IMG/VR virus record: IMGVR_UViG_3300008110_000025
Location: 1 to 64,000 of that record
DNA: 64,000 nucleotides
Direction: 5' to 3' (one strand)
Source: a virus
The notes beneath the pieces are model-generated. The model did no database searches. It saw nothing but the letters and a program-made list of their open reading frames with translations, and was not told the origin of the DNA. Made by a program: the position numbers and the translations under genes. Below are positions 1,485 to 22,049 of this stretch, one piece after another (the stretch's first letter is position 1; every line of letters begins with the position of its first letter).

Positions 1485-3392
1485 TTACTTACTCCACACT
1501 TTAGTTATTGATGTCTCTGCTTTTAGTAGTCCGTTACGTATGATTTTATTAGCAGCTCTCTCCATCTCCTCAGTCATATAGATCTTCCATTCCTCTGCAA
1601 AATACTCAGGGCAAATGGTGTCTATCTGATCGTGAACAGTCATTACTATCTTAACAGGATAATTATGTTTCTTGATTCTTTTATAAAGATATACAAGTGC
1701 TAATTTAGTCATATCTGCTGAACTACCCTGAATTGGGGTATTCTTAGATGCTCTCTCAATAGATCCAAGCTCCATAAAGCTGTCTCTATCTCCGTACATT
1801 TTTGGGGTCCAGCTGTCAAACCATCTCTTCCTATAGAATGGGAAGAACGTAGTAACAAACCCGTACCTCTTTCCAAACTCTCCCTGATCCTCAAGGAATC
1901 TTTTAATAGCAGGGAAAGCTTTGAAATACTTATCAATCAAATCCTTTGCTTCAGTCATTGAACAGTTAATAGTCTCACTAAGTTTCTTAGGCCCCATTCC
2001 ATAAGCCAATCCAAAGTTGATTGTCTTAACCTGTGTCCTAAGCTTCTTGTGTTCCTTGCATTCACACTTCTGTGTATACTGATAGTAAGTACAACCATCT
2101 TCTGCTGCATTCTTCCACACTGGTCCGAATACTAACTCAGCACATACAGAGTGTAAGTCTTCATTATTACGTAGTGACTTGAGGAATACAGGATCTCCAG
2201 AACCGTAAGCAATTACATTCAACTCTTGGCTTGAGTAATCAGAGGATACAAACACCCATCCATGTGGAGCAACAAAACAATTACGATACTCATTAGTTGC
2301 TGGTATCTGTTGCATATTAGGTTCACTAGATGACACACGACCTGTGTCTAGTATCTGTTGAAAGTTAGTATGCACCTTACCATCACAACTAATGTAGCTG
2401 TTAAAGTTTGTTCCAAATGCTGATGCTAGTTTACTCTTCTCCTTGTACTTGATGTACTCATCAATCAATGGATGCTTATAACGATAAGGAGCTAGCTTCT
2501 TACCATTTACATCCTCAATCTTAGGGAATAAAGTCTGGAATATCTTAAGCACTTGGCTTGGGCTGTCCCAGTTAACTGTTGAATCCTTTAACTCTGACTC
2601 ATCTAAGAATAAGTCTAGTTGTTTCTTCGCTCTGTACATTTCGAACTCTGAATAGGATAAAAGGCTCGTGTCTAATTGTTTCCCTAAAAGGAAACTTTCT
2701 TGCTTATTCCTATCAGCTAGCTTCTTCCATTGAATGGTGTCAATCTCTAGCCCATTGTACTCAATCTCAGAGAATACAACAACAGCTTGATTCTCGAGTT
2801 TAGCTACATTGCTTAGAGTCTGAAGTTGTAATAGATCTACTTGTTGAAAGTAAATGTCTATTAGATACTCAACGTCCTTAGCACCATAGATAATTTGAGA
2901 GTCATCAAATGGAGTTGATGATGTTTGAGTAAACCTATTACGCACAGACTTATCTAACTCTTTATCAAGATATCTCTTGACAAGCTTAGCCAGTCCAAAT
3001 CCGTAATCAGTTTTCCCACAGTGTAAAATCTTTTCGCATAGGTATGTATCATGAATGTTTACAGTATCTATCTTAAGATAATGCTTAATGAACTTGTAAT
3101 CAAACTTTGCATTGTGGAATACTTTTACGATATCCTCATTGTTTAATACTCTGTTCAATTGCACCTGATCTGCATAAGTTAGATCTCTACAATCAATTAC
3201 ATACTGACGCTCTGCATCACCGATTTGCAGCATAAGTAGTTTCTTACATGTAAAATCAAATCCTTCTGTCTCTGTATCTACGCCTAATACCTTACTGGTT
3301 AGTAGATCTTCAACAGCTTCTTCAATTGTACATGATTTAAAACTACTCGCTATCAGTGCTTGGTTCTTGCTGATAAAGAAAATGTTGTTCAT
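1485..3392 (-). CDS. polA: DNA polymerase family A (3'-5' exonuclease + polymerase domains)
   Basis: ExoI DTET, ExoII HNAKFD, ExoIII YGAKD; TGRVSSSEPNMQQIP; motif A DYSSQEL; motif B RTQVKTINFGLAYG; NTPIQGSSAD; motif C VHDQ. Start placed at MNNIFF (the track starts at 3407). Confidence 0.96.
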   Translation of the reverse strand: MNNIFFISKNQALIASSFKSCTIEEAVEDLLTSKVLGVDTETEGFDFTCKKLLMLQIGDAERQYVIDCRDLTYADQVQLNRVLNNEDIVKVFHNAKFDYKFIKHYLKIDTVNIHDTYLCEKILHCGKTDYGFGLAKLVKRYLDKELDKSVRNRFTQTSSTPFDDSQIIYGAKDVEYLIDIYFQQVDLLQLQTLSNVAKLENQAVVVFSEIEYNGLEIDTIQWKKLADRNKQESFLLGKQLDTSLLSYSEFEMYRAKKQLDLFLDESELKDSTVNWDSPSQVLKIFQTLFPKIEDVNGKKLAPYRYKHPLIDEYIKYKEKSKLASAFGTNFNSYISCDGKVHTNFQQILDTGRVSSSEPNMQQIPATNEYRNCFVAPHGWVFVSSDYSSQELNVIAYGSGDPVFLKSLRNNEDLHSVCAELVFGPVWKNAAEDGCTYYQYTQKCECKEHKKLRTQVKTINFGLAYGMGPKKLSETINCSMTEAKDLIDKYFKAFPAIKRFLEDQGEFGKRYGFVTTFFPFYRKRWFDSWTPKMYGDRDSFMELGSIERASKNTPIQGSSADMTKLALVYLYKRIKKHNYPVKIVMTVHDQIDTICPEYFAEEWKIYMTEEMERAANKIIRNGLLKAETSITKVWSK

Positions 3393-3576
3393 GTTGTTGT
3401 TGTGCAATTTTGTGGTAAATATAAGCCATCACATTGGCAGCAAATTCTACGTCATATGATGCATTACCAAACTGGAAGTGTTTCTCTCCACGTTCAGCAG
3501 CCATCATAGCTTGTAGTTCAAAGGCTTGATAAGTCCCAGACTCCATCAAGTCAAATACTAATTTCATTCTCGACAT
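3343..3576 (-). CDS. hypothetical protein (probable start MSRMKLVF)
   Basis: ATG at 3576 preceded by an A-rich leader; the track's upstream extension to 3678 runs through a structured noncoding element. Confidence 0.7.
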   Translation of the reverse strand: MSRMKLVFDLMESGTYQAFELQAMMAAERGEKHFQFGNASYDVEFAANVMAYIYHKIAQQQHEQHFLYQQEPSTDSE

Positions 3577-3600
3577 ACAGTTATTGATTTTTAATTGTTT

Positions 3601-3730
3601 CGTAACTAGTAACAAACGGACAGTGTCCCTTGTTTTCTCTTGATTATATACCAGAGAACAGACAGCAGGTAACCCCAAACCTGCTATAGTCTATTCAATG
3701 GTTATTCGTAAGTACACAATGATAGGGTTT
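3601..3730 (-). promoter_or_regulatory. structured intergenic RNA element (hairpin with possible pseudoknot)
   Basis: GAATAGAC/GTCTGTTC plus AGCAGGT/ACCTGCT helix; loop GGGGTT is complementary to upstream AACCCT. Confidence 0.45.
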
Positions 3731-3733
3731 TTG

Positions 3734-3814
3734 AAATCAGGATGGGATTCGAACCCATACCTCTGCAAGAGTTCAACGGAACTTGCAGTGCTCTACCAGT
3801 TGAGCTACCTGATT
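3734..3814 (-). ncRNA. tRNA-like RNA (81 nt) with elongated anticodon arm and no 7-nt anticodon loop
   Basis: AATCAGG/CCTGATT acceptor, TA-GCTC-AACTGGTA-GAGC D arm, ATGGG-TTCGAAT-CCCAT T arm; anticodon arm reads CTGCA-AGTTC-CGTT-GAACT-CT-TGCAG. Confidence 0.85.
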
Positions 3815-3827
3815 TACTCAGCTATGA

Positions 3828-4433
3828 TTAGCTGAAGAACGGACTAGAGTCAAAGCTCTTACCAGCAGGAATGCCAGTAGATACGTTTGACTTAACAGCA
3901 TCAGGCTCAAGGAAGTCATGATTAGCTTTGTTAAACACTACACGAGTGTTAGCAAAGATGTACATGCCCTTGTGAGTGATGAAGTCTCCATCTTTACCAC
4001 GACGTTTAGCCGCAGTTTCGATGTTGCTTGCCTGCCAATCTGTAGGAGTTACAGTCTCGAAAACTTCTACTTTCATTGGGAAGGCTTCACCATTGATGTG
4101 AGCTACTGGATTGATGACATTCAATGGGAGAATCTCACGTCCCATTTGGTCAACCTCCCAATCAGCATCATCCATCAGGTTGATGTTGAGATAAACTGAA
4201 GCATCCTTAGCTTCAGCAGTAAGCCAAGCACGACGAGCACCATTACCTTGTGAGAAACGGTCGTCTGACTTGTTAAAGATAGCAAGTGGGTTTGCTGCAG
4301 TAGACTGTGTTTTGACAATCTCAGCAAATTCCAATTGAATCTTACCTCCATTAACCTTACGAGCTTGGAGTAAAAGGGTTTGACCCACTTGCAATCCCTG
4401 CAATGAGCCACTGTTGATTGTGTTGTTCATCAT
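3828..4433 (-). CDS. hypothetical protein, possibly ssDNA-binding
   Basis: 201 aa, codon usage like the highly expressed capsid gene (CGT, GCT, AAC), beta-rich, flexible tail ending DSSPFFS; the SSB role is inference only. Confidence 0.8.
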   Translation of the reverse strand: MMNNTINSGSLQGLQVGQTLLLQARKVNGGKIQLEFAEIVKTQSTAANPLAIFNKSDDRFSQGNGARRAWLTAEAKDASVYLNINLMDDADWEVDQMGREILPLNVINPVAHINGEAFPMKVEVFETVTPTDWQASNIETAAKRRGKDGDFITHKGMYIFANTRVVFNKANHDFLEPDAVKSNVSTGIPAGKSFDSSPFFS

Positions 4434-4473
4434 GATTTTGATGATTAAATAATAAATTAAATGAATGAATTGA

Positions 4474-4536
4474 TTTTACCACTCTGCATTAAAGGGCTTG
4501 TGACCTTCAGTTGTTACACTGGCTGCATTAGTAAAA
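4474..4536 (-). ncRNA. twister ribozyme, type P1
   Basis: UUUUAC-U^AA-UGCA-GC-CAGU(GUAACA)ACUG-AAGG-UCACAAGC-CCUU-UAA-UGCA-GA-GUG-GUAAAA: P1, P2, P3 and P4 helices, both pseudoknots (CAC/GUG, GC/GC) and the conserved UAA, GC, AAGC and GA nucleotides are all present. Confidence 0.9.
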
Positions 4537-4551
4537 GGGGACTAAGCCCCT
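4533..4551 (-). terminator. weak intrinsic terminator-like hairpin overlapping the twister P1
   Basis: AGGGG-CTTAGT-CCCCT-TTT; the stop codon of the upstream gene lies in the loop. Confidence 0.5.
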
Positions 4552-4961
4552 GTAAACATTCTAACTAGATCAGCATGATCGTCATTAGTTTGTGGATCAA
4601 TCTTAGGAAGCTCAGGCATCCCAAGTTGTTTAGCTGAATAGACATAGTGATCTATATAACCCCATCCATTACTTAGATTATATGTAGTCTTTACATATTC
4701 TTCTAAGGCTTTCTCGATATCTCTATCCCAAGCATTATGGAGTTTACGATACTCATGTAATGTCAGACCATCGAGTCTAGGAGTATAGCCCATGTCAAAC
4801 CATGAGCTATATCCTGTACTAACTCGCACTTTCTCAGCAACAAATGTGATGATAGGAAACGGTATTGTTTCTTCTATCTCAACTCTCTTGATGTAGGTAA
4901 GTGTCTTCATATTAGTAGCTGATTCTATCTGATTCATCACCATCGAAATAAGTGCACTCAT
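4542..4961 (-). CDS. hypothetical protein
   Basis: 139-aa ORF; the true start may be the downstream MKTLTY. Confidence 0.7.
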   Translation of the reverse strand: MSALISMVMNQIESATNMKTLTYIKRVEIEETIPFPIITFVAEKVRVSTGYSSWFDMGYTPRLDGLTLHEYRKLHNAWDRDIEKALEEYVKTTYNLSNGWGYIDHYVYSAKQLGMPELPKIDPQTNDDHADLVRMFTGA

Positions 4962-6378: not shown

Positions 6379-6678
6379 TTACTTCTCTTCGTTTGTGATG
6401 ATGCCCTGTTTACGGGCAGCTTCAACAATCATCTTAAACTTAGGATGTTTGTTGTGAACAAAACGAATCATTTGAGTTTCGTTTGTAAATTGTTCATCGA
6501 GGGATGCAAATCCCACGAATACAACTTTACCGTCAATGACTTCGATTTCATCGTTGTCTTTGAGTACATCACGAGTAGAGAGGATAATACCTGAAAGTTT
6601 ATTCTCCTTGAAACAAAGTGATGCGGAAGCAGCAGCAACCATGTTGCTTGCTTGTTGAACTGGTGTTTTCTTGCTCAT
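6379..6678 (-). CDS. hypothetical protein, first gene of the leftward arm (probable start MSKKTPVQ)
   Basis: ATG at 6678 after an AAACACA leader; followed by its own terminator. Confidence 0.75.
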   Translation of the reverse strand: MSKKTPVQQASNMVAAASASLCFKENKLSGIILSTRDVLKDNDEIEVIDGKVVFVGFASLDEQFTNETQMIRFVHNKHPKFKMIVEAARKQGIITNEEK

Positions 6679-6849
6679 TGTGTTTGAGTTTATGAAGTTT
6701 ACGAATAAATTATTATGGGGGATATACTTATCCTCCAAAACTTAGCGGGGGTCTTTGAATACGTAGGATCTCACTATCAAAAAATTTCCCCAGTTAAAAA
6801 AATTTTATGTCAAGTTTTCTGTGCAGTTAACTCGTAACATTTTTCACAT

Positions 6850-6857
6850 TAGATTTG
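6850..6857 (+). promoter_or_regulatory. Bacteroidota -7 promoter box TAGATTTG
   Basis: Matches TAnnTTTG, 18 nt before the ATG at 6876. Confidence 0.55.
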
Positions 6858-6875
6858 TTACAAAATTCTAACTAA

Positions 6876-7010
6876 ATGGCTAAAGCAAATACAGTTAACT
6901 CGTGGTCCCCAAACCCTAGAAAGAAACGTCCAGGGGTACATTCTAAGAAAAAGTTCTCTAAACTGAAGAGCTCAAAACTTTACAAGAAAGTTAGTAGAGG
7001 TCAAGGATAA
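6876..7010 (+). CDS. small highly basic protein (44 aa, MAKANTVNSWSPNPRKKRPGVHSKKKFSKLKSSKLYKKVSRGQG)
   Basis: Translated by hand; preceded by a promoter box; KKRPGVH...RGQG pattern; missed by the ORF track. Confidence 0.75.
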   Translation: MAKANTVNSWSPNPRKKRPGVHSKKKFSKLKSSKLYKKVSRGQG

Positions 7011-7016
7011 TTTGCT

Positions 7017-7024
7017 ACATTTGC
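7017..7024 (+). promoter_or_regulatory. Bacteroidota -7 promoter box TACATTTG
   Basis: Matches TAnnTTTG directly ahead of a structured noncoding region. Confidence 0.65.
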
Positions 7025-7028
7025 AGAC

Positions 7029-7250
7029 AGCAACCATTCAACTTGAATGATCACCCCTGAGGGCCAAAGAGTAAGTAAGGGGTCAGACGTTGGGTTCTAT
7101 CATACTCACTTTCAATTACATAGAGTATGAAAGTTGTCCCCGATAGTTGCTAAAAAGGAATTGACATAAGGTTCTGGGGTGGATTACGACTATAGGGAAG
7201 AATGGAATGTCCCACCGAAGGCTAAAGACGGCAGAACTGAAACTCAATTT
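7029..7250 (+). ncRNA. candidate structured ncRNA (~220-250 nt)
   Basis: Eight nested helices found by eye in two multibranch domains; own promoter box; no credible ORF. Confidence 0.6.
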
Positions 7251-7324
7251 TAAACAAAAAATCCTAAGGGGATAGGTGTGCCCAATTGGGAAATTTAGTT
7301 TATCTTTATCTCAAAATTTCTCGT

Positions 7325-7555
7325 ATGGCAACTAACATTAAAGCAGGGCTGTATCAACCCCCATTTACTACTGAGGAAGATCAGCTTACTTACATGTTAG
7401 TGTACGTAGATGATAAGGTAGTGCAGTTCTTAGATGAGGGGGAAAAGTTTGTCTGTCAGTTTAGCTATGAAGAGCTGAGAGGGATTATGGGGATAATGGC
7501 TGCAGAGCAAGAGAAGACTCATCTTAGAATACAGGCTCATATTAAAAAGAACTAA
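7325..7555 (+). CDS. hypothetical protein (probable start MATNIKAG)
   Basis: ATG at 7325 follows a TATCTTTA -7-like box at 7301. Confidence 0.7.
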   Translation: MATNIKAGLYQPPFTTEEDQLTYMLVYVDDKVVQFLDEGEKFVCQFSYEELRGIMGIMAAEQEKTHLRIQAHIKKN

Positions 7556-7561
7556 GTTAAG

Positions 7562-7909
7562 ATGAAGCTTACAAAGATTGATAAAGTACAGACTAGTCTT
7601 AAGCAACTCATTGATGTAGACCCATCTGGGGAGATCAATGAGATTTATAGAGTCGATGATATTAGGCATAACCAAGTACTTATAGCTAAGGTTTATCAAG
7701 AAAGGCAAGATGTATTTAAGTTTGAATACTTGTCTAACTTCTTTGCTGCAGGGACTGGGATAACACTTACTACTAATGATGCTGGGGTTACTACTATTAC
7801 ATCTACTGCTACTAGCAGTGGGGTTAGTACTAACTCTAATGTGCTTATTGACTGTGGGGCATTCCTCACCCCTAACGAGAATGTACTTGTAGACTGTGGA
7901 ACTTTTTAA
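7562..7909 (+). CDS. putative tail fibre-associated protein
   Basis: AGTGITL fibre motif; tandem C-terminal NVLIDCGAF / NVLVDCGTF. Confidence 0.75.
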   Translation: MKLTKIDKVQTSLKQLIDVDPSGEINEIYRVDDIRHNQVLIAKVYQERQDVFKFEYLSNFFAAGTGITLTTNDAGVTTITSTATSSGVSTNSNVLIDCGAFLTPNENVLVDCGTF

Positions 7910-7920
7910 ATTAAAACTGA

Positions 7921-10900
7921 ATGGCTCTTAGAATACGTCGTGGATTATCAGCAGATAGAACATCAATAACCCCCGAACAAGGGGAGTTTTTGTATACAAC
8001 AGACACCTACCAAGTCTACATTGGGGATGGGGTAACTGCTGGGGGTAAGCCACTATATACACTGACTTCTTTAGGGGCTATCGGGCTAACAGACTTAAGT
8101 GCTACAAGTCCTTTATTCTATAACAACACTACAGGGGTATTCTCAATTCAAGTTGCCACTGGATCACAGAATGGATATCTAGCTTCAGGAGACTTTACTG
8201 CATTTAATAATAAGCAAACTGCTCTTGAGATATTCGATGAGACTACTTCATTAATTACCAACCCATCACAGATTAAGTTTGTAGGAACCCCAGTAACCGC
8301 AACAGTAGCAGGCTCAGTTGTAACAGTTACTATTAGTGGTACAGGTGGGGGAGGGGGAGGAGTAACAGGGGTATCTGTTGCAACTGCTAATGGTTTCTCA
8401 GGGGTATCAGACTTAAATGCTACCAACCCAACTCTTACTTTAGGGACTACAGTATCAGGGTTACTAAAGGGGAATGGAACTGCAGTATCAGCTGCTGTAG
8501 CAGGGACAGATTACCAAGCTGCATTGACTGGTACTGGTCTGGTAAATTCTTCAGGGGGTACAATCAGTTATGTAACTAATAACTCTAGCAATTGGGATAC
8601 AGCTTACTCTCAAAGAATCTCATCATTTACTACAATAGGTAATAGTGGGGCTGCTACTTTTACAGGTAATGTCCTTAACATCCCTAACTATACTGCAGCA
8701 GGTATTGGGGCAATAGCATCCTCAAGAATTATCGGGACTACTAGCCCGTTACAAGGTGGGGGAGACTTGACTGCAGATAGGACTCTGTCTATCCTTCAAG
8801 CTACAACCTCACAAAGTGGGTTTTTAAGCTCTACTGATTGGAATACGTTTAATGGTAAGCAGGCTGCTCTCTCAGGAACAGGGATAGTTAAGTCTACTGC
8901 AGGGACGATTACTTATCTGACTGATAACTCAGCTAACTGGGATACAGCATTTGGATGGGGTAACCACGCATCTGCAGGCTACTTAACCTCAGCTACTGCC
9001 GCATCTACGTATGTCCCTAGAACTAGGACTTTGACTATTGATGGGGTTTCACAAGATCTAACAGTAGATAGAAGCTTCACAATCAATAAGGCTATTAACG
9101 ATCTTACTGATGTAACTATTACGTCTGTAGCTGGAGGAGATCTTTTGCAGTATAACCTTGCCACAACTCAGTGGATAAACACTCCATTAAGTGCTATTAC
9201 TTCAGTTGGGGCTGACAACGGATTGAGTTTCTCAGGAGGTAATGTTATCCTTGGGGGAAGTCTAGACTTTGATACAACTATCAATACGTTTAACTCTAGT
9301 CAGTACTCATTAACATTTACAGCAGGTTCGACAGCTTACTCATCCCCAGGTACTGCCCCACTAAGAATAACAGAGACTACAGCGTACTCAGCAGGTAGAT
9401 CAGCATTTTATGTAGGAGCTAATGATAATCATGCCCTCTCTGCAGAAGGTAAAGGCGCCCCAGTAACTACAGCCCCAACTAACTTATATAGAAGATCATC
9501 TGCTAACTTGTCAAAGAATGCTACTATACATTCTAAAGCAAAGCAAGGGTTACCTTTATATGCATACTCAGATTCAGACGAAGCTTATTCATCTATAACT
9601 AGATATTCAACTCCTAGTACTCCAGGTATATTAATTGAAAAGACTACAGGATTAACAAACTCTACAACTGCTAACGCGTTAAGTTTAACTGCAGGAGATA
9701 CATTTGGGGCAAATCAACTGTACAATCTACTAACTTTAAGATTAACAAGATCTGCTACAACTTCTGGACTTGTACCTAACACTGGATTGGAGTTTTCTTT
9801 TGAAGCTCAGACTAGCGGAACCACTGACATTGAACGTCTTGCAAACTTTAAAGTATATAGAGACTCATCAAATAATGGTACGCTAGCTATAAGCACAAGA
9901 ACATCTACAATAAATGATGAATATGATGGAATAGTGTTAAGTAGCAATGGAGAAATTACTCTTCCAGGATATAGACCCACTTATACTGATCTTTTTAAAT
10001 CTCTTCTAACCCCAAATATTACTTCTGGACAGATAACTAGTGTAGGTCTTGTATACTCAGATGCATTTAGACCTAGAATAAAATATGGAGATACTGTTAG
10101 TGTACAGGCTGTTTCCCCATCAGGAACTGGAGCAACCTTTGGTCCAACATTAGGATACTCGTTAAAAAGAATACGAATAACTAATCCAGGATCTGGATAT
10201 GTATCGCCCCCTACAGTAACTATAGCTGCACCCCCAGCTGGAGGATCAGGATGGACTACTGGAGTAACCGCAGTAGCAACTGCTACGTTAACAGCTAGTG
10301 GACAAGTAGAGTATATAAAACTTACTAATCAAGGAACTAGATACGTTACAGTACCATCTGTCACTATATCTGCCCCACCATCAGGAACAACTGCAACAGC
10401 CGTTGCTGAGTTTGGAGAAGGAGAAGTATTATTTATTGCAGTAACAAACTCAGGATCAGGGTATAATAGTGCAACTACAAAGATTATTACTAGAACACAA
10501 TCGTATGCTGGTGCAGTTCCATCAGCATACCTAGGAGTAGATAATAATGGTAAAGTACAATTAGCAACAATATCTGTAGATTACTTATTAAATGGGGGTC
10601 AGTCAACAGGTCCATTTGCAGAGGGAGGTCAATTCTACAATAACACCACTTTATACTTTACTCAAAAAAATTTTATTATTAATGGTAGTAATTATTTTAG
10701 TGTTTCAACTGGAGGATCAGGATCAACATCTACAGATGATGGAAGAATAGTACTTTCAAGTACATCTGCAGGAGGAAACAAATTAGAGAGATCTATATTC
10801 CCTGACCTTACAAGTTCTCCATATACTGATTTTATAGGATTTGCGGATGATTATCTATCTTCTTCCTATACATCTACTTTTTTACATGGAGGTATAAATA

Positions 10901-21753: not shown

Positions 21754-21761
21754 TATATTTG
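21754..21761 (+). promoter_or_regulatory. Bacteroidota -7 promoter box TATATTTG
   Basis: TAnnTTTG with TTG ~20 nt upstream, ahead of groES. Confidence 0.65.
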
Positions 21762-21779
21762 CATAAAACCAAATGTAAC

Positions 21780-22049
21780 ATGAACTTTAATCCTACAAGA
21801 GATTGGGTAGTGCTCCCAATCCCAAACAAGAAAGTAACAGACAGTGGTATTCTTCTATCAGATGAAGCTGCTAATTCACTAAAGTCTAATATTCTCCAGG
21901 CTGTAAAAGTCGGTCCTGAATGCAAGCAGGTTAAAGAGGGAGATACCGTATACGTGCACCCGCACACGGAAGGGGTGATTATTGATGTTGAGGGAACTCA
22001 GTATGTAATGGTAAATGAATTCATGCTTCTTGGGGTAATTAACAAGTAA
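21780..22049 (+). CDS. groES: co-chaperonin GroES (Cpn10)
   Basis: PTRDWVV, TDSGILL mobile loop, VGPECKQVKEGDTV, C-terminal EFMLLGVI. Confidence 0.9.
   Translation: MNFNPTRDWVVLPIPNKKVTDSGILLSDEAANSLKSNILQAVKVGPECKQVKEGDTVYVHPHTEGVIIDVEGTQYVMVNEFMLLGVINK

Follow-up and report, generated by a model that had tools for sequence, protein, structure and literature searches.

Positions 7027 to ~7290 on the plus strand of the viral record IMGVR_UViG_3300008110_000025 almost certainly encode a genuine structured RNA, and its family is not in Rfam. The RNA of ~260 bases comes from a crAss-like phage of lake water and was studied in a window of 64,000 nucleotides, which is the first 64 kb of the 87,687-bp record. 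An earlier note made from the letters of this window had described a structured noncoding RNA of no known family, with its own promoter, at the start of the late gene arm, and this description was borne out by an Rfam search, by covariation among homologues, by the promoter box, and by the neighbouring genes. As to function, the tentatively preferred reading is that the RNA acts in cis as the leader of the late transcription unit, where it could serve as an attenuator or antiterminator gate.

Covariation support for the fold

The evidence for the fold is drawn from comparison of related sequences and is not thermodynamic. Folding of the single sequence was unremarkable, with a minimum free energy of -67.1 kcal/mol on the plus strand compared to -65.4 +/- 5.0 kcal/mol for shuffled sequences (z = -0.35), and the minus strand also folded no better than its shuffles (z = +0.21). 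The plus-strand value on its own would suit a region without a functional RNA, in which helices had arisen by chance within an intergenic spacer. The comparison of homologues pointed strongly the other way. Every main helix proposed in the earlier note was present when checked on the sequence, and these helices plus one added were evaluated in two alignments. The first, a MAFFT alignment of 15 sequences, was made without reference to any structure: 95.8% of its cells were paired, 19 of the 52 pairs showed double-sided changes, and the covariation score was 0.253 as opposed to 0.118 after shuffling (0 of 500 shuffles as high) and at most 0.079 with slid partners, a control in which the partners were moved by 1-3 columns. 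The second comprised 38 diverse homologues and was model-aligned, and hence leans towards the model; here, 94.2% of the cells were paired (35-47% with slid partners), double-sided changes occurred in 31 of 51 pairs, and the covariation score was 0.526 compared to 0.18 for shuffled alignments, none of which (0 of 500) reached the observed value, and at most 0.083 for slid ones. The compensatory changes that the earlier note had suggested looking for were therefore strong and far beyond chance. The helices P1, P2, P3, P4, P5, P7, and P7b, as predicted from these alignments, are each backed by several double changes, and invariant G-U pairs identify the plus strand as the RNA strand.

The region would likewise hold no functional RNA if it were a protein-coding gene that had been missed. 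The claim that the region holds no credible open reading frame (ORF) withstood closer inspection: all three plus frames carry mixed stop codons, none is open under the standard code, and since all three kinds of stop codon occur, simple stop-codon recoding would not open a frame either. No ORF is conserved, the longest ORF starting with ATG in the 38 homologues having a median length of 11 aa and never exceeding 28 aa, and the lengths of the homologues (245-283 nt) are spread over all three residue classes modulo 3. Chance helices are further opposed by the collapse of the slid controls and by the finding that all 25 viral-contig loci and all 120 listed metagenome loci (at least 120 exist) fit the model. 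Both chance and a missed coding gene can be regarded as practically excluded, the covariation counts already sufficing to refute them, and the comparative data indicate that the RNA is real and under selection for its fold. A further claim, that the region is GC-richer than its flanks, held in comparison to the upstream intergenic DNA (0.42 versus 0.31-0.35) and failed in comparison to the neighbouring genes.

Anatomy of the RNA

The RNA is laid out as two domains followed by a conserved G-rich tail, all on the plus strand. As a whole it was assigned to 7027-7290, with a model match at 7026-7287 that scored 278 bits with the covariance model R1 and 240 bits with a second model, and its 3' end may reach ~7340. 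Searches of the 87.7-kb record by DNA and by RNA model found a single copy.

Domain 1 (7029-7151) is predicted to form a four-way junction of P1, P2, P3, and P3b/P4 with a near-invariant core. P1 closes the domain (AGCAAC 7029-34 with GTTGCT 7146-51), and five of its six pairs were changed on both sides, with variants such as GCAAC/GUUGC, UCACC/GGUGA, and CGAAC/GUUCG. The P2 hairpin (CATTC 7035-39 with GAATG 7045-49) is hypervariable in sequence and had all five pairs changed on both sides, and in the P3 hairpin (ACCCCT 7053-58 with AGGGGT 7078-83) this was the case for three of six pairs (variants ACCCUU/AAGGGU and ACCUCU/AGAGGU) with a conserved loop border (UGAGG ... AAGUA). The near-invariant core CAGA(C/A)-GUYGGGUU ... 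(A/G)AGUUGUCCCCRAU extends over 7084-7144 and includes P3b (GTTGGG 7089-94 with CCCGAT 7139-44), in which one pair covaries, from U-A to C-G in 17 of the 38 sequences with U-G intermediates, and the rest are invariant. On a near-invariant internal loop (GGGUU ... ACAUAG ... AGUUGUCCCC), P3b bears the variable hairpin P4 (TCATACTC 7100-07 with GAGTATGA 7123-30). The length and sequence of P4 vary by clade while the helix is kept, five of its eight pairs being changed on both sides in the MAFFT alignment, and its loop carries a conserved ACAUAG towards the 3' strand (7118-23).

Domain 2 (7157-7251) is a nested stack of P5, P6, P7, and P7b with a conserved P7 loop. It is closed by P5 ((GG)AATTGA 7157-64 with TCAATT(TT) 7244-51), all seven pairs of which were changed on both sides. 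P6 (GUUCUG 7171-76 with CAGAAC 7232-37) was poorly aligned in the model-fitted alignment, and variants seen in the alignments were compensatory (GUUUUG/CAAAAC, CCUGU/ACAGG, and ACUCGG/CCGAGU). In P7 (GGUGG 7178-82 with CCACC 7212-16), all pairs were changed on both sides among the 38 sequences, as were all pairs of P7b (GAC 7188-90 with GUC 7209-11), which is the helix added to those of the earlier note; variants include GGAGG/CCUCC and AAC/GUU, respectively, and the loop beyond is conserved (UAUAGG..GAAAU). The 3' side of P7 is followed by the conserved unpaired junction GAAGGCUAAAGACGG (7217-7231; consensus AGGCUnAAnACG, then GAAA), which was near-invariant in the 38 sequences.

The conserved 3' tail AAGGGGAUAGGUGUG (7266-7280; consensus AAGGGG(G)A-n-UGU) was found in almost all homologues. 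Its G-run could pair with the invariant GUCCCC of P3b, as in the alternative terminator and antiterminator pairings of an attenuator, and as both strands are invariant, covariation is uninformative on this pairing. Not all of the smaller elements held up. The CCTA/TAGG hairpin that had been proposed to follow domain 2 showed one-sided changes only among the 38 sequences and so lacks covariation support, a mini-hairpin GCU/GGC called by RNAalifold in the domain 2 junction was not supported either (13 of 38 cells unpaired), and covariation gave no consistent sign of a pseudoknot joining ACAUAG in the P4 loop to UAUGU in the tail. The palindrome CCCAATTGGG at 7281-7290, a small hairpin, is present as described and is confined to the freshwater clades; its variants CTCAATTGAG and CCTAATTAGG look compensatory by eye, and it is followed by no U-tract and received no terminator call.

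Absence from known families and distribution of relatives

The Rfam search that the earlier note had proposed as a check matched no known family. None of the 4227 models of Rfam 15, which include riboswitches, ribozymes, RNase P, SRP, 6S, tmRNA, and large noncoding RNAs, gave an RNA match at the gathering score here. At E <= 10 there were zero matches on either strand of 6650-7400, and 10 diverse homologues searched at E <= 1 gave only two unrelated chance matches, both outside the RNA. A blastn search against GenBank phages yielded no match to the RNA, and literature searches turned up no description of it. Identity as a tRNA or tmRNA was considered, given the cloverleaf-like appearance of domain 1, and was rejected: the likeness is one of topology only, ARAGORN called nothing at the RNA (its only calls in the window were 299-373 and 3733-3814), and the Rfam tRNA model matched only 300-373, 379-471, and 3734-3814. 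These three were all that Rfam gave at the gathering score in the whole window, with no twister ribozyme among them. As a side observation, ARAGORN reads 3733-3814 as a tRNA with a two-base 'anticodon'. A template repeat of a diversity-generating retroelement was likewise rejected, as the 87.7-kb genome holds no second copy (a reverse transcriptase was not searched for).

Relatives were collected in several ways. Using the downstream 76-aa protein as a query returned 20 viral contigs, in ten of which (L001-L010) the noncoding stretch was 74-98% identical, with compensatory changes visible in this first alignment. Exact-motif scans of the viral collection followed by covariance model R1 gave 25 full-length homologues, and one two-motif scan of a metagenome collection gave at least 120 loci, some of them from marine samples. 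All of the 120 metagenome loci listed matched the models, with scores from 295 down to 33 bits; the two core motifs served as the search pattern, and the invariance of the core in the metagenome set is in part due to this selection. Altogether, at least 145 loci are known from uncultured freshwater and marine phage sequences, and DNA runs containing the stretch itself were mostly from lakes and other freshwater metagenomes. The family spans phages with Bacteroidota-type promoters as well as phages with sigma-70-type promoters and Shine-Dalgarno sites, and its most distant members keep the core of domain 1 but have a shorter domain 2 or something else in its place.

When 151 Bacteroidia genomes were searched for a host counterpart, the only matches were on a contig of phage origin within a metagenome-assembled genome and, weakly, at one site beside a mobile element. 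The latter (G106:C3:37317-37564, equal to L398 1501-1748) lies on a Bacteroidia chromosome and scored 45.9 bits (E 5.6e-10). It is located between a superoxide dismutase gene and an array of AlpA-like/excisionase-like genes of the mobile element, and it likewise heads a co-directional operon.

Genomic position and neighbouring genes

The RNA sits where two gene arms diverge. The rightward genes, from 6.9 to 74 kb, encode tail-fibre and virion proteins, the large terminase, the portal, and the major head protein, and the leftward arm carries a family A DNA polymerase; one conserved protein is ~30% identical to crAss-like phages. The region of the RNA is the only sizeable noncoding gap on the plus arm, and the other long gaps were rejected as sites of further RNAs since they hold small ORFs. 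At only 114 bp, the direct terminal repeat of the record resembles a true terminal repeat less than an overlap left by the assembly of a circular or permuted genome, so that coordinate 1 need not be a physical end.

Across 92 distinct homologues, this arrangement was largely retained: counting ORFs of 90 aa or more, the first one downstream was co-directional in 74 of 76 cases and the first one upstream was on the opposite strand in 44 of 53. The genes after the RNA are always late ones with roles in the virion, packaging, or lysis: tail-fibre and virion genes followed by terminase, portal, and capsid in this genome, a holin as the next gene in a marine clade, and the small terminase subunit as the second gene in the sigma-70-type clades. 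A link to the first downstream gene across clades was rejected, the two small-protein families being unrelated (hhalign probability 0.5%). As the first genes after the RNA are non-homologous between clades, it is the place that is conserved and not a partner gene. In this genome and the freshwater clades, the first gene after the RNA encodes a protein of 76 aa (7325-7555, plus strand) with tail-fibre genes next, and a link to this gene in particular was rejected as well, given that relatives of 50-59% identity (L011-L020) occur in another context without the RNA.

The junction is also close to the minimum of the cumulative GC skew (~5-6 kb), the maximum at ~73 kb being the other strand switch of the 87.7-kb genome. 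Such a place would be expected of a replication-origin transcript, which would be made where the arms diverge and would help to open or prime the origin, as do the ColE1 RNA II and the T4 and T7 origin transcripts. The family A DNA polymerase of the phage is consistent with this idea, as is a run of G residues that gives way to AT-rich DNA on the 3' side of the RNA. GC skew tracks gene orientation, however, and is hence confounded, the RNA lies inside a co-directional gene array in 9 of 53 relatives, no repeats or iterons were seen (no search aimed at them was made), and the ribosome-binding-site and terminator layouts described below would be left unexplained, which together make an origin transcript quite improbable.

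Upstream, the rightward arm begins with the gene of a basic mini-protein of 44 aa (6876-7010, plus strand), with which the earlier note had suggested a possible partnership. This suggestion was weakened. A gene of this family (42-46 aa) ends 7-24 nt before the RNA in 45 of 72 RNA loci, and the reverse association was rare: with 3205 clusters at 90% identity, the basic proteins form a very large family, only 4 of 88 sampled protein loci (L184-L271) have the RNA behind the protein gene, with other genes following directly in the remainder, and several RNA clades are without the basic protein. Strict co-occurrence therefore fails, an obligate pairing was rejected, and the protein is best described as a frequent neighbour. 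The 44-aa protein had no match in Pfam, PHROG, or NCBIfam, and the sole match to a solved structure, the N-terminus of the eukaryotic ribosomal protein eL29 (E = 0.37), was taken as an effect of composition. The consensus of the family is MAK..KPK.KRPG[VI]H[SA]K.K.SKLK.SK.YKK..RGQG, and its contexts are varied, examples being a place directly before a GroEL-like gene or a large terminase.

Between the basic protein and the RNA, marine relatives encode an acidic mini-protein of 41-45 aa ending in CxxCGS; it was not found in this genome. Including some freshwater relatives, this conserved protein has 41-50 aa, ends in ..TCNxxxPExCExCGS with three cysteines, is perhaps zinc-binding, and adjoins the basic protein and the RNA. 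It is encoded directly upstream of the RNA in L278, L305, L355, L279, and others, and another instance is L030 8427-8579.

Promoters, terminators, and leader layouts

The Bacteroidota-type -7 box has the consensus TAnnTTTG. Such a box, TACATTTG, is located at 7016-7023 on the plus strand directly before the RNA, with a predicted transcription start at ~7027-7030, the foot of P1, and a TAnnTTTG box is found 5-8 nt before P1 throughout the freshwater clades. Only five intergenic boxes of this kind occur on the plus arm of the window. One of them, TAGATTTG (6850-6857), is the promoter assigned to the 44-aa gene, 26 nt before its ATG, and the box of the RNA is the only consensus promoter ahead of the 14-kb fibre block. 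Elsewhere in the window, a consensus box TATATTTG (21754) is followed by a 96-aa ORF (21759-22049) with the look of a GroES-type co-chaperonin by eye.

The assertion that the next gene has a -7-like box of its own was confirmed: a putative box TATCTTTA lies at 7301-7308 (plus strand) ahead of the 76-aa gene, and TAnnTTT[AG] occurs 20-45 nt after the tail in all Bacteroidota-type relatives. For the idea of a stand-alone RNA, the evidence points both ways. The RNA has its own promoter in this genome, yet no intrinsic terminator was called after it. In other clades, the RNA either lacks a promoter, as in marine relatives, or is the 5' leader of the next gene, or has a terminator behind it that the polymerase must pass.

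Two clades show plain leader layouts. In the clade of L285, L338, and L323, a sigma-70-type promoter (TTGAAA-17-TATATT) abuts P1, and the tail G-run is the 3' strand of a true intrinsic terminator (CCCCUG-loop-CAGGGG-UUUU), which is followed after 20 nt by a GGAGG ribosome-binding site and an ORF, with the upstream gene on the other strand. Since the interval is too short for a further promoter and the upstream gene points the other way, the late genes of this clade are reachable only by read-through of the terminator. In the clade of L364 and L303, the next ORF has its AGGAGG ribosome-binding site immediately adjacent to the RNA.

Marine relatives lack a separate promoter for the RNA, which begins there 1-3 nt past the stop codon of an upstream mini-gene. 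This arrangement, and the cloverleaf-like topology of domain 1, would fit an RNA-processing or stabilising module that marks a cut site or shields the messages of the mini-genes from exonucleases. In most clades, the RNA starts at a promoter and not behind a gene, no tRNA or ribozyme model matches it, and its complexity and the conservation of its unpaired bases go far beyond what protection or a cut site would need. A module of this type is consequently considered improbable.

A candidate leader that gates the late genes

In the tentatively preferred reading, host RNA polymerase (RNAP) would start at the promoter before P1 and transcribe the fold, and the folded RNA, alone or with a bound factor, would decide whether RNAP stops at the tail or runs on into the late genes. 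A short and stable leader RNA would accumulate as a by-product and could have its own role in trans. A gate in cis is favoured because the place by a promoter and before late genes is kept despite changed flanking genes and a changed host type, and because two clades show the plain leader layouts, one of them needing terminator read-through. As in an attenuating leader, the RNA is positioned between a promoter and a gene, the box preceding P1 and the downstream ORF being almost always co-directional. A possible expression platform is seen in the terminator of the L285 clade and in the abutting ribosome-binding site of the L364 clade; in this genome, a terminator is absent and the RNA is separated from the next gene by a promoter-like box. 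No common downstream function that could be linked to a ligand was found, the genes being unrelated (fibres, holin, and small terminase) and none of them metabolic.

Several points weigh against such a gate. The -7-like box between the RNA and the next gene is conserved in all Bacteroidota-type clades, and the late genes may therefore have their own promoter, independent of the RNAP that transcribes the RNA. Marine relatives show, by eye, a covarying weak hairpin and a U-rich run after the tail, a pattern resembling the 3' end of an independent transcription unit. The RNA is far bigger and more intricate than known antitermination RNAs, and a consensus host-type promoter would fire from the start of infection, which would suit an early free RNA unless the gate were closed early. 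Finally, the contigs from RNA libraries described next cannot give transcript ends or levels.

Six metatranscriptome runs, each from a different study, contained 11-15% of the words of 6600-8000. When the contigs of four of these runs were placed on the sequence, whole ones (106-294 nt) fell within 7044-7343 alone, apart from a single piece at 7822-7989, and two contigs were identical to this strain. The contigs break off at the hypervariable P2 loop and where coding variation sets in, the depth of conserved words is summed over strains, and DNA may have been carried over into the RNA libraries; accordingly, the contigs are a weak hint of transcription that fits a fairly stable RNA and no proof of a discrete or abundant one.

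The same contigs would fit a free, trans-acting structured RNA, which is possible and nearly as likely as the cis gate, and the two readings are not exclusive. Here, the RNA would be made early and abundantly from the host-type promoter, or be cut from a longer transcript, and would act as a folded RNA or RNA-protein particle on host RNAP, the ribosome, or a defence factor, while its place at the junction would be an inherited gene order in which a promoter is harmless. The consensus promoter of the RNA, its own terminator in some clades, and the promoter-like box for the next gene are all compatible with this, and its size and many invariant unpaired bases are typical of large noncoding RNAs. 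Precedents exist for RNAs of either kind. In the crAss-like phage phi14:2, two intergenic RNAs outnumber most mRNAs, appear early, and persist (bioRxiv 10.1101/2020.03.07.982082), and in Stx phages, a short RNA from the late promoter has a regulatory role of its own, being both a leader and a trans-acting RNA (PMC7547250). On the other hand, the place ahead of late genes is kept across clades with unrelated flanks, which a trans-acting RNA would not need, no terminator follows the RNA in this genome, the RNA is physically the 5' leader of the next gene in two clades, and the RNA-library evidence is weak for the reasons of contig edges at variable sequence, pooled depth, and possible DNA carry-over.

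Comparison with known systems

The proposed cis gate has a close counterpart in lambdoid phages. There, the late promoter PR' is followed by a short RNA ('6S', or StxS in Stx phages) and the terminator tR', which is read through by means of Q. The short lambdoid RNA is ~200 nt long and accumulates, and the late genes (lysis, small terminase, and structural) lie behind the nearby stop. The L285 clade reproduces this order of promoter, RNA, terminator, and late genes with a small terminase subunit. The antiterminator of lambda acts by recognising promoter DNA, and an elaborate fold of the leader RNA is not required, whereas in the present family the fold itself is under strong selection and most clades, including this genome, are without a canonical terminator. 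No Q-like factor was found, and no search aimed at one was made.

Processive antitermination mediated by RNA is known from HK022 put (~70 nt, two stem-loops) and Bacillus EAR (~120 nt). Similar to these elements, which act in cis on their own polymerase, the RNA is promoter-proximal, structured, and heads a long operon, and EAR is preceded by the first genes of its operon, a placement also seen for the RNA in the marine clade. The likeness is one of positional logic: the RNA measures 220-310 nt with at least eight helices, and no Rfam match was obtained. In the N/nut system of lambda, a small basic peptide binds the leader RNA at nut, which consists of a 15-nt hairpin and boxA. A small, very basic, and probably unstructured protein encoded beside a leader RNA at the start of a long operon is a shared feature, but the basic protein studied here mostly occurs without the RNA, and the RNA also occurs without the protein.

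For a packaging role, the reference is the phi29 pRNA, a phage-encoded, promoter-driven, multi-helix packaging RNA of ~170 nt. The RNA is likewise multi-helix, promoter-driven, and phage-encoded and works as an RNA; unlike the pRNA system, there is no match in sequence or model, and the phages here have a standard large terminase and portal. The only pointer to packaging is the nearness of the RNA to terminase genes in one clade, and nothing beyond nearness was found.

The phi14:2 RNAs mentioned above belong to a crAss-like phage of an aquatic Bacteroidota host and are highly expressed rightward noncoding RNAs, but they are located in the early region and not ahead of late genes. Homology to them was not found, searches with R1 (filters off, on the first 9 kb, in which those intergenic regions lie) and R2 (whole genome) being empty, and the basic protein is absent from phi14:2. 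Separately, the interval 2904-4602 of phi14:2 (NC_021806) is a 1.7 kb stretch without annotated genes for which the paper reports a highly transcribed noncoding RNA; it gave no match to the family.

Implications

The RNA family is new in that it is absent from Rfam 15 and, as far as searched, from the literature. Large and intricate RNAs with strong covariation are rare, and most of those found in this way have been ribozymes, riboswitches, or cores of RNA-protein machines; the RNA is thus a ready candidate for an Rfam entry and for structure determination. A more far-reaching and rather unlikely possibility is that it represents a new class of large gate RNA placed before the late genes in phages of different bacterial phyla, which would sense a small molecule or the state of the host, or bind RNAP directly. 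If this were true, phages would possess a riboswitch, or a giant put-like element, directed at a host target that is conserved universally, and the RNA would set the moment at which virion production and lysis begin, with no protein antiterminator dedicated to the task. The fixed place of the RNA before the late genes makes it testable how crAss-like and other uncultured phages time late transcription by host RNAP.

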